Of a stretch of 64,000 bases of DNA, positions 6,995 to 63,792 are shown piece by piece. A program made the translations under genes and the position numbers. The notes under the pieces were generated by a model. It had not been told where the DNA came from. It saw only the letters and a program-made list of their open reading frames with translations, and did no database searches. The stretch is from an uncultured delta proteobacterium (lineage in GTDB: Bacteria > Desulfobacterota > Syntrophia > Syntrophales > Smithellaceae), in assembly GCA_963753975.1 (NCBI GenBank), contig CAVWEH010000004.1:288001-352000 (forward strand), read 5' to 3'. How positions within the stretch are numbered: position 1 is the first letter of the stretch; every line of letters begins with the position of its first letter.

Positions 6995-7030
6995 CGTGTG
7001 ACCTCGTGTGACCTTCAGGTTATTAGGTTA
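6995..7030 (+). repeat. 18-nt hairpin micro-element nested inside another copy of itself
   Basis: CGTGTGACCT[CGTGTGACCTTCAGGTTA]TTAGGTTA. Confidence 0.85.
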
Positions 7031-7075: not shown

Positions 7076-7303
7076 ATCACGGGTAAAATACCCTCCGCTG
7101 TGCGGGATAATCACGGGCATTTGCAATGCCCTCCGCTTATGCGGGATCAATTCAACCTGCAAATATTGCCGCACTGTGCTGGCAATATTTGAGTTTCATT
7201 GATTCGACCTGCAAGCTTCAGCGCACTCTGTTTCTGAAACTTGGGTCTCATTACAATTTACCAATTCCGCTGCACTTTGCTTTCGGAATTGGAGTTTCAC
7301 GAA
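7076..7303 (+). repeat. Modular hairpin repeat, locus A (head-head-H1a-H2-H3)
   Basis: Near-identical to reverse complement of 11093-11243; modules shared with 51625-51850, 54331-54611, 63634-63768. Confidence 0.92.
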
Positions 7304-7390
7304 AAACAACGTGCTTAAATATACTCACAATTTTCTTTATTTCAATTCTTTTTTACATTAGTCAACGGCAAAATAACCGGATCCCCCCGA

Positions 7391-7428
7391 CGTAGCCCGG
7401 CATGCGCTGGGCAGGCTACCGGGCTACG
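7391..7428. repeat. GTAG-initiated inverted repeat (REP-like)
   Basis: CGTAGCCCGG-N18-CCGGGCTACG perfect 10-bp IR. Confidence 0.5.
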
Positions 7429-10938: not shown

Positions 10939-11092
10939 TTTTTCCTCCACATGCATTTTAAAATATTTAAACTTAGCGCTTAAATAACAATATTTTCGCT
11001 TGAAAGCTACAAAAATATTTTTACTGTTTAGTGGAGCCTCCTCCGGTCGCAGATGACCTTTAGGTTAAAGGAGCCGGAGGCTTCCTAAAATA

Positions 11093-11252
11093 GTGAGACC
11101 CAAGCTTCAGAAACAAAGTGCGCTGAAGCTTGCAGGTCGAATCAATGAAACTCAAATATTGCCAGCACAGTGCGGCAATATTTGCAGGTTGAATTGATCC
11201 CGCATAAGCGGAGGACATTGCAAATGCCCGTGATTATCCCGCGGAGCAGAGG
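11093..11252 (-). repeat. Modular hairpin repeat, locus B (partial head-head-H1a-H2)
   Basis: Reverse complement nearly identical to 7102-7250; micro-element at 11047-11067 lies beside it. Confidence 0.92.
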
Positions 11253-11367
11253 ACAACGCGACCTCCCGCGGCTGGAGCCGAGGGATTCCAAGTCACGGGA
11301 TTTGATGTTAGGTTTTCCTAATTATTTTTCCCGCCACCAGTTGACCACATAAACTACCATCTTTTTT

Positions 11368-19365: not shown

Positions 19366-19533
19366 CCTATTATCCTTCCGTGCCAAACTTTTTTGCAGAT
19401 TTATTCGATTTTAACATATATCGAAATCTATATACTCTCATACTGTAATATATTGGACCTTTTAGAAGATTATGTCAACATTTTGCTGCGACTGAAAATT
19501 CACAGTTTCAGCATTATCGCCAGAATCTCATTA

Positions 19534-19969
19534 ACCACGGGTATCTTACGATACCCTCCGTTTATGGCGGGATCAATTCCACTTGCGCTTCAAACTTCGC
19601 TTCACTCGTTTTCATCGAGTATCATTGACCACGGGTATCTTACGATACCCTCCGTTTATGGCGGGATCAATTCCACTTGCGCTTCAAACTTCGCTTCACT
19701 CGTTTTCATCGAGTATCATTGACCACGGGTATCTTACGATACCCTCCGTTTATGGCGGGATCAATTCCACTTGCGCTTCAAACTTCGCTTCACTCGTTTT
19801 CATCGAGTGTCATTGACCACGGGTATCTTACGATACCCTCCGTTTATGGCGGGATCAATTCCACTTGCGCTTCAAACTTCGCTTCACTCGTTTTCATCGA
19901 GTGTCATTGACCACGGGTATCTTACGATACCCTCCGTTTGTGGCGGGATCAATTCCACTTGCGCTTCAA
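19534..19969 (+). repeat. 94-bp tandem array, about 4.6 units (locus C: head-H1b repeated)
   Basis: Units start at 19534, 19628, 19722, 19816, 19910; only two variant positions seen. Confidence 0.97.
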
Positions 19970-19995
19970 TTTGAGTCTCTTTAAAAAAAATACGT

Positions 19996-29942: not shown

Positions 29943-30040
29943 GGAAGTGCCCAGGTCACTGGTGGGCCTCCTGGACTTCAAATCCAGTGTGGGGCGCTAG
30001 AACCGTCCCGGGTGGGTTCGATTCCCATGCACTTCCGCCA
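29943..30040 (+). tRNA. selC: tRNA-Sec(TCA)
   Basis: GGAAGTGC/GCACTTCC 8-bp acceptor, CTGGA-CTTCAAA-TCCAG anticodon arm, long variable arm, GCCA end. Confidence 0.96.
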
Positions 30041-51624: not shown

Positions 51625-51850
51625 TCACGGGTATTATACCCCCTCCGCTTAGCGGGATCAATTCAACTGACGCTTCAAACTTCGTTTCATTCGTTTTTAG
51701 CGAGTTTCATTGATTCGACCTGCAAGCTTCAGTCGTAGATGACCTTCAGGTTATGCACTCTGTTTCCGAAACTTGGGTCTCATTACAACTTACCAATTCC
51801 GACTTGTGACCTTTAGGTCATACGCTTTGCTTTCGGAATTGGAGGTTCAC
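51625..51850 (+). repeat. Modular hairpin repeat, locus D (head-H1b-H2-H3, two micro-inserts)
   Basis: H1b matches tandem-array unit; H2/H3 match locus A plus inserts at 51733-51753 and 51803-51820. Confidence 0.92.
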
Positions 51851-51920
51851 AAATAAAATTAATTTTAAAGCCGCGGCCTTAAACAAAAAGACCGCGGCCT
51901 CAAGTTTTTAACTGGTAATC

Positions 51921-54173: not shown

Positions 54174-54330
54174 AAATTTTTATCTGCTTTATAGCGAGAA
54201 AAGCCCTCTATATCATTACTACATGAGAATTTAACTTGACGCTTAAGAACATTTTCCTTATCTTATCATTACAGCAAAATTACTTCTCAGGAATCACAGG
54301 TATGAATAAAGCAAACTTTGGAAACCGATT

Positions 54331-54611
54331 CGCAAGCTTGCTGCGGGGTATTATACCCTCCGCTACGCGGGATATCCCTGCATCCTTTGGCTGCAGGATG
54401 AATTCAGCTAACAAATATTACCGTGCTGCACTTGTAATATTTGAGTTTCATTCATTCGACCTGCAAGCTTCAGCATGAGTGACCTCTTGTGCCCTTCAGG
54501 TTATTAGGTTATGCACTATGTTTCTGAAGCTTGGGTCTCATTACAAGTTACCAATTCCGACTTGTGACCTTTAGGTTACGCGCTTCGCTTTCAGAGTTGG
54601 AGTTTCACGAA
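54331..54611 (+). repeat. Modular hairpin repeat, locus E (head-H1a'-H2-H3 with nested inserts)
   Basis: Compensatory changes relative to locus A; inserts at 54474-54511 and 54561-54578. Confidence 0.9.
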
Positions 54612-54615
54612 TAAA

Positions 54616-63633: not shown

Positions 63634-63768
63634 ATCACGGGTCTAAACCCCCAAAGCAAGCTGCGGCGGTATTATACCCTCCGCTTCGCGGGATTGTTCA
63701 ACTTACCAATTCCGACGTGCTGCGCCCTGCATCCGCCGGGCTTTGCTCTCGGAATTGGAGTTTCACGA
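63634..63768 (+). repeat. Modular hairpin repeat, locus F (interrupted head-H3)
   Basis: GGTATTATACCCTCCGCTTCGCGGGAT joined directly to TTCAACTTACCAATTCCGA...TCGGAATTGGAGTTTCACG. Confidence 0.88.
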
Positions 63769-63792
63769 AAAAGATTTGATCCCAGTGACCCC

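Follow-up and report, generated by a model that had tools for sequence, protein, structure and literature searches.

Introduction

The described systems closest to the element reported here, a hairpin unit of 18-22 nucleotides (nt) that is present eight times in a 64,000-nt stretch of an uncultured Smithellaceae genome (positions 288,001 to 352,000 of contig CAVWEH010000004.1, assembly GCA_963753975.1; the whole stretch is called the window below), are the REP, BIME and REPIN repeats with their RAYT transposases, and the IS200/IS605 family together with the PATEs. Sections of the REP literature (PMC3333891, PMC8266576, PMC3116915, PMC3733652, PMC6006769) portray short, high-copy intergenic hairpins that leave no target duplication and build mosaics and tandem arrays, all of which holds for our element, and the proposal of mobilisation in trans via single-stranded DNA (ssDNA) circles is shared as well. 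REPs are also reported, in part of one of these sources, within target palindromes and in genes (PMC3733652). The element likewise is a short imperfect palindrome, high in copy number and mainly extragenic. It lacks the GTAG (or CGTC) foot of REPs, however, and carries a variable, self-pairing head in its place; moreover, single units of 18-22 nt are gained and lost, rather than inverted doublets with C^T cleavage. Part of a REPIN study, by comparison, names doublets as the mobile unit and reports no singlet excision (PMC3116915). No cognate RAYT was found in the source genome.

With IS200/IS605 elements and PATEs, as far as sections of one source describe them (PMC10055086), the element has in common that it is scarless and strand-asymmetric and, in Desulfobacteraceae, inserts 3' of a short T-rich motif resembling its own 3' end, with exact gain and loss and no target duplication. 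In contrast to that family it consists of one hairpin rather than separate left and right guide hairpins, is far smaller and has no room for guides, shares its ends with no autonomous tnpA element among the Y1 loci examined, targets loops in part of its range, and occurs in a genome with neither tnpA nor tnpB. The element works like the REP/RAYT and IS200/IS605 systems, yet on the features tested belongs to neither.

Its nearest precedent is a set of cyanobacterial repeats, the SDRs of Nostocaceae, which Elhai and colleagues reportedly described in 2008 as 21-27 nt units inserted precisely into short targets, other repeats and genes. We know of no enzyme that moves them. SDRs differ from the element in sequence and phylum; the element is smaller and has two target regimes and a covarying dumbbell structure. 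A literature search that did not reach subscription journals returned no description of the family. The element is one of the smallest mobile DNAs known. It stands out by its 18-nt size, by a full series from empty to nested alleles, by the covariation of its head, from which a dumbbell intermediate is implied, and by following a different target rule in each of two lineages.

Copies and sequence of the element

The source genome, G000, comprises 2.43 Mb in 6 contigs and is 95% complete; other G-numbers denote comparison genomes and L-numbers extracted loci. Each unit consists of a 4-8 nt head followed by a 14-nt hairpin core, TGACCT-TY-AGGTTA, so that it ends in GGTTA. A preliminary description, made from the letters alone, had listed eight copies of such a motif with a C[G/T]TG head and a length of 18-21 nt. 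Re-reading of the sequence bore out all eight positions and the core, with a right end that is nearly always GGTTA; the units, however, measure 18-22 nt (a 19-nt form is present in relatives), and the head is far more variable than supposed, the four bases before the core reading CGTG, CTTG, ATAG, TAGA, CAGA and others, while GTAG is rare.

All eight copies in the window lie on the plus strand. The focal site, 6995..7030, is a nest in a non-repeated intergenic hairpin, whose loop it enters at the 5' edge: an outer 18-mer with head CGTG and a TT loop is split at TGACCT^TT by an inner 18-mer (7005..7022) with head CGTG and a TC loop. The remaining copies occupy hairpins of repeated host chains. 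A 21-mer with head TCGCAGA lies at 11047..11067; another, with head TCGTAGA, sits in host hairpin H2 at 51733..51753, followed in H3 by an 18-mer with head CTTG and right arm AGGTCA (51803..51820). A second nest, in H2 at 54474..54511, is formed by a 20-mer with head CATGAG that is split by an 18-mer with head CTTG and one stem mismatch (54486..54503), and the H3 hairpin beside it holds an 18-mer with head CTTG (54561..54578).

The core pattern yields 6 matches in the window (5 sites, one of them read on both strands) against 0.02 expected, a count reached by 0 of 100 shuffles. Genome-wide, G000 contains 66 exact cores, 36 with a TT and 30 with a TC loop, and 21 one-mismatch cores, a tRNA-fMet gene counting among the latter; with the pattern reversed as a control, 0 exact and 2 one-mismatch matches remain. 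All but one of the 66 exact cores fall outside long reading frames. In G000 a pyrimidine follows the core in 86 of 87 cases, and the fourth base is a purine, again in 86 of 87. The C-rich strand carries 40 of 55 clusters (p = 0.001), a bias that is not independent evidence because the host chains share it.

Empty, filled and nested alleles

Repeated host hairpins have loops of 12 or 14 nt, as in the empty H2 at 7212..7243 (+, 12 nt) and the empty H3 at 7261..7292 (+, 14 nt), or loops longer by 18, 20, 21 or 22 nt. The difference between filled and empty host hairpins that had been proposed from the window thus stands, except that the H2 insert at 54474 is 38 nt long (20 plus the nested 18) rather than 20 nt. 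Comparison of orthologous sites with congeners, which are about 88-90% identical, resolves the same alleles between species. Both 51.7-kb hairpins are empty in G005; the 54561 hairpin is exactly empty in G013 and filled in G005, which at the 54474 site has a 21-mer with a different head. At the focal site, searched in five congener genomes, G013 is empty and G010 has a single 18-mer; the nest of the window recurs in G011, while that of G005 shows a compensatory stem change and a different loop in its inner unit; for G006 no orthologue was shown.

Further exact indels were found among the alignments listed for 88 element loci of G011, G013 and G005 set against G000, namely at L063 (20 nt), at L080, L081 and L086 (18 nt each) and at L136 (21 nt, in unique DNA); at many of the 88 loci the two-sided orthologue is absent or the entire host chain is missing. 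None of the orthologous empty/filled comparisons reveals a target duplication, in keeping with what had been noted for the window. Since insertions differ between species that are about 88-90% identical, activity has been recent, and the element is a real, recently active and very small mobile element. These orthologous pairs also support its earlier characterisation as a site-preferring, non-autonomous, self-nesting insert, and its boundaries are conserved genome-wide, as judged from the genome scan, the host alleles and the head analysis.

Nests proved informative about how units enter one another. Across all the DNA examined, inner and outer unit differ in 49 of 50 distinct nests, in the head in 37, in the loop in 35 and in both stem arms in 21, which rules out slippage as the origin of the nests, and the orthologue series at the focal site speaks against it as well. 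Nests in G020, of which 784 kb of about 2.9 Mb were examined, combine three stem variants. Entry into the unit's own loop is at a single position for units with 4-nt heads (46 nests) and one base to the left for those with 6-nt palindromic heads (7 nests), and six copies lie inverted, in the opposite strand of another copy. All 14 nests of G000 have a TC loop inside and a TT loop outside, which suggests that some nests spread as composites.

Head pairing and covariation

Head boundaries were taken from nests, arrays and empty host alleles, without recourse to pairing. The procedure gave 37 distinct heads, of which 4 were dropped as artefacts (two misread tandems and two containing N). The first and last bases of the remaining 33 form a Watson-Crick pair in 26, a G.T pair in 4 and no pair in 3. 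Their ends read C..G in 20 heads, C..A in 0, T..G in 4 and T..A in 5 (Fisher p = 0.001, which overstates the significance, as heads share descent). The core stem varies in step as well: among 498 contexts, 433 are canonical, while 9 carry TGCCCT/AGGGTA and 6 carry CCACCT/AGGTGG, both compensatory changes.

If the 3' A were joined to the head, the unit would form a closed dumbbell of 18-22 nt with 7-9 pairs and two short loop caps. We propose such a dumbbell as an intermediate on account of the pairing and covariation of the head's terminal bases, together with the covarying stem. Structural counterparts are the DNA minidumbbells and type II two-residue tetraloops: according to sections of one source, the sequences of the commonest heads (CTTG, CCTG, CGTG, CATG and TTTA) form them, and the core loops TTTA and TTCA are among those reported to form two-residue tetraloops with a first-fourth pair (PMC9975016). 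The analogy is structural only, the studies covered there concerning short tandem repeats rather than mobile elements (PMC9975016).

Two target rules in two lineages

Empty sites were rebuilt for 4-nt C..G heads and then clustered, a few contexts being longer heads that were misread. Of the clusters from the Smithellaceae-type family, 21 of 32 place the cut within a hairpin loop or immediately in front of one (90 of 320 shuffles), compared with 10 of 41 clusters in Desulfobacteraceae (117 of 410 shuffles). Conversely, TTR stands directly 5' of the cut at 34 of 41 Desulfobacteraceae sites and at only 2 of 32 Smithellaceae-type sites. The lineages differ in loop placement (Fisher p = 7e-4) and in TTR (p = 2e-11), and likewise in a preference for G at +4, seen at 23 of 32 Smithellaceae-type sites and absent in Desulfobacteraceae. 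Insertion into hairpin loops, the general behaviour put forward in the preliminary description, is therefore correct for the Smithellaceae-type lineage, whereas in Desulfobacteraceae the element inserts after TTR in DNA that is unique and mostly unstructured.

The TTA at its end makes the unit a target for itself in Desulfobacteraceae. Tandem arrays of 2-7 units number 86 in 87 metagenome loci, which had been selected for a tandem pair. One empty/filled pair in a repeated host places the cut after TTTG and assigns GGTTA to the element, and the junctions observed are A^T, T^T, G^T and G^C, with C^T confined to 6-nt palindromic heads. The element also enters coding sequence: in the genus Desulfobacula, 4 of 30 orthologous loci of holA (DNA polymerase III delta) hold an in-frame 18-mer of six codons. 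G168, although 95% identical to a carrier, lacks this insert to the exact base, yet G161, at 87%, has it, a pattern that suggests exact loss or recombination.

A sister repeat of about 90 nt, present in more than 100 copies, was noticed at L526 (1521-1690, genome G087). It begins with a large hairpin and ends TGACC...GGTTA, follows TTTA, forms chains and possibly folds as a pseudoknot; it may share the element's enzyme.

Distribution

The element occupies two separate lineages, Smithellaceae-type genomes and part of the Desulfobacteraceae. The core is present in 23 of 24 Smithellaceae-type family members, which have 1-186 copies each; elsewhere in the order, 3 of 16 families have it, at 1-2 copies. 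In a sample of the phylum the 18-mer pattern was found in all 7 family members, while 3 of the 393 genomes outside the family gave single matches. When GTDB was scanned for one 19-nt form, at least 121 loci were returned; the titles among the 80 matches listed are Smithella, Smithellaceae or Syntrophaceae, Desulfobacula or Desulfobacterales, unclassified deltaproteobacteria or proteobacteria, and one Bacteroidales bin. In the family of one Desulfobacula genome, 35 of 101 genomes have matches, mostly 1-5 and in a few cases 17-93, some of the low counts being chance matches to genes or tRNAs. One 18-mer context is common to many Desulfobacula-type genomes (L268, L291, L313, L339, L398, L400 and L439); in L268 and L291, the two that are annotated, it is the rplF-rplR junction, and the insertion is old and fixed.

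Viral contigs yielded 109 loci in 82 distinct contexts, 59 of which are tRNA-fMet look-alikes. Many of the remaining 23 are element-like copies, in REP loops or after TTA, and the nested 33-nt form was not found in viral contigs. Given the element-like copies, it is plausible that phages or prophages carried the element between the two lineages.

Mechanism and rival explanations

We lean, with some reserve, towards a non-autonomous peel-and-paste element that is moved in trans by an HUH enzyme. A Y1-type enzyme, either an IS200/IS605 TnpA or a RAYT, would act on transiently single-stranded DNA, cutting after GGTTA and before the head. The ends would be joined to an 18-22 nt circle that would fold as a closed dumbbell, its core stem extended by the head pairs, and the circle junction would be reopened into a single-stranded target that mimics half of the junction, being either a 5' TTR (in Desulfobacteraceae and arrays) or a loop with a 3' Y-N-N-R (in the Smithellaceae-type family and nests). 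The TTR target resembles the element's own end at 34 of 41 Desulfobacteraceae sites, which matches the TAM/TEM logic set out for IS200/IS605 in part of one source (PMC10055086). The enzyme may be a transient visitor that need not reside in G000; in E. coli, as part of one paper reports, strains retain REPs after loss of tnpAREP (PMC3333891).

Several results weigh against this HUH-based movement. Profile searches covered PF01797 (Y1) in G000, 24 relatives and 30 Desulfobacteraceae-type genomes, PF04986 (Y2) and PF00078 (reverse transcriptase) in 50 genomes and PF07282 (TnpB) in 5. No Y1 gene was found in G000, complete to 95% as it is, and our own Y1 profile, run over its six frames, gave a best E of 0.11; a RAYT query was equally without a match. 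In G090, which is assembled as one 4.96-Mb contig and has 25 cores, mostly in one repeated host, Y1, Y2, TnpB and reverse transcriptase genes are all lacking. Y2 occurs in 4 of 24 family members and is absent from G000, G011, G020, G021 and G090. Carriage of Y1 does not follow the element, with 7 of 12 copy-rich against 8 of 12 copy-poor family members, and 10 of 11 carriers against 13 of 14 non-carriers in Desulfobacteraceae, and none of the Y1 genes in the loci examined is bounded by the element. One enzyme would also have to account for two target rules, and no conserved 4-nt guide accounts for the cut sites. By a nearest-neighbour method that cannot model such loops, the unit in linear form is only weakly folded (-0.4 kcal/mol, z about 0), and no circle was observed in contigs, which cannot show circles. 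The HUH-type ssDNA chemistry proposed at the outset is a putative mechanism: it fits the junctions, and the check for co-occurrence with Y1 or RAYT genes came out negative. Because at least one RAYT of G020 escaped the family search, an absence in a relative means that the query used did not find the gene.

TnpB is likewise absent from G000. Beside the 87 metagenome array loci no recurrent mobility gene was found, a Y1 gene lying about 1 kb away in 2. The leads for an enzyme are RAYTs, and they are circumstantial. In G022, G021 and G020, REPs next to RAYT genes carry copies of the element as inserts in their loops, and the RAYT model NF047646 scores above its cut-off for L010 and L856. The element's first 10 nt recur, in two shared head variants, in the REP beside a rare 156-amino-acid RAYT (G020, G024), a REP that is not amplified in the part of G020 examined; the REP of another RAYT shares the apical 10 nt. 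Near IS200-type tnpA ends in Desulfobacteraceae the apical CCT-TT-AGG hairpin recurs, with the apical 10 nt in an internal hairpin. The L010-type RAYT has close homologues only in G021 and G022 among 50 genomes, and its REP is absent from G000; the L855/L856-type was met in a single non-carrier among 401 phylum genomes, and the 784 kb of G020 show no amplification of its REP. Neither type was found in viral contigs. At L010 (G022:C13:24169-27510) the RAYT and its REPs adjoin a reverse transcriptase gene and an AAC-rich repeat, in what looks like a diversity-generating retroelement locus.

Some candidates were set aside. An integron integrase, suggested by one locus, is rejected by the junction register, the cut falling after TTTG with GGTTA kept by the element; an attC-type G^TT crossover is not seen, nor is there a TTA on the left in the Smithellaceae-type family. 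At L248 (1480-1519) an 18-mer precedes an integron-integrase-like gene by about 20 nt, and that gene adjoins an IS200-type tnpA. Membership of the IS91/ISCR rolling-circle group is not supported, its Y2 transposase being absent from G000 and G090, and rules in which the head acts as guide (IS608 crossed pairing, REP dinucleotide pairing) gave no fit by inspection.

The same ssDNA cut-and-join cycle might instead be run by an enzyme that resides across these lineages and is neither Y1 nor Y2, perhaps a type IA topoisomerase or a relaxase, or else an undescribed nuclease-ligase. We regard this as a possible though clearly less probable account. It would suit copy-rich, well-assembled genomes without Y1, Y2 or TnpB as well as recent activity between species of about 88-90% identity, and the G at +4 in 23 of 32 Smithellaceae-type sites reads on the opposite strand as C at -4, the base that bacterial topoisomerase I prefers in that position. 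Yet a universal enzyme leaves the patchy distribution unexplained (7 of 7 family members against 3 of 393 other genomes), the +4 preference is missing in Desulfobacteraceae, and a scan of G000 for HUH motifs gave no candidate, the relaxase and topoisomerase families lying outside that search. Slightly more doubtful still is a fuller version in which the element is an 18-nt covalently closed minidumbbell with structure-defined ends, near the physical minimum for a mobile element, moved by a resident enzyme other than the known HUH transposases and perhaps born from a tRNA-fMet segment with junction-fitting flanks. Templated insertion, in which short cDNA or a template-switching polymerase would copy a transcribed or folded unit into nicks in the loops of hairpins, perhaps with tRNA-fMet as the first source, is a further account that we consider improbable. 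The bottom strand of a unit with head CCTG equals the segment from the 3' side of the anticodon through the variable loop to the T-stem of a common tRNA-fMet variant; the tRNA-fMet of G000 differs from the core by one mismatch, a closeness reached by 0 of 300 random hairpins, and G000 has one reverse transcriptase gene. The match is, however, post hoc. A copy derived from the G000 tRNA would have head CCTC and a mismatch in its core, as is seen in no other copy; reverse transcriptase was not found in the carriers G020, G021, G011, G006, G005 and G090; and exact ends and covarying head pairs are unexpected from template switching. The tRNA-fMet gene lies at G000:C2:726384-726460, with the one-mismatch core on its non-coding strand (the common variant matches an 18-mer exactly, with fitting flanks), and the sole reverse transcriptase match of the genome, a 292-amino-acid frame, at G000:C2:429437-429970.

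Purely passive movement, with mobile host chains, by gene conversion between chains and by slippage, is more improbable again. Whole chains do come and go between congeners, many G000 copies share host and head, the uniform TC-in-TT make-up of the 14 G000 nests suggests composite spread, and slippage could enlarge tandem arrays. Against it stand the unrelated target clusters (32 in the Smithellaceae-type family, 41 in Desulfobacteraceae), insertion into unique coding DNA, the 49 of 50 nests with unlike units, 21 of them with a paired stem change, and the three-stem-variant nests of G020. As a sole cause it is refuted by the holA and focal-site series, while it still contributes to copy number. 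That the motif is the binding site of a dimeric transcription factor is the least credible reading, for all that the 14-mer is nearly palindromic and 65 of 66 exact cores in G000 avoid long frames. It is contradicted by alleles that are exactly empty, by nests, by arrays that reach 7 units and by copies within genes, as well as by the conserved asymmetric G.T pair and the compensatory stem swaps, and a factor site is refuted as the origin of the element.

The element bears on how single units of REP-like repeats move: it offers an 18-nt substrate with exact ends, a covarying structure, two target rules and named candidate enzymes, so that excision, circularisation and insertion become testable with synthetic oligonucleotides. 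By adding six codons to core genes such as holA and building nested regulatory mosaics, the element is a source of variation that annotation misses, and a scarless 18-nt integration reaction would have technical interest.

Host hairpin chains and other features of the window

The repeated hosts are chains of 45-70 nt hairpin modules, located (with approximate ends) at 7082-7305, 11030-11305, 51625-51855, 54294-54612 and 63640-63770, and such chains are gained or lost whole between congeners. The chain carrying the 11047 copy (11030..11305, no strand assigned) is wholly absent in G011, G013 and G005, and contigs of run X3 show joints that skip 270-274 nt there; chain D (51625..51855, +) is wholly absent in G013 and G010. 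Because the chains are mobile, many G000 copies rode along with them, and copy number overstates independent events. The chain at 63.7 kb has a different 21-nt insert in H3.

Other repeats accompany these chains. A GTAG-footed, REPIN-like inverted repeat at 7392-7428 is missing in some congeners, and GTAG-YCCGG motifs number 17 in G000, without a RAYT gene. A tandem array of about six units with a 94-nt period occupies 19429-19992, intergenic before the uvrA stop. Rfam identifies only four tRNAs in the window, the tRNA-Sec gene being located at 29943-30036.
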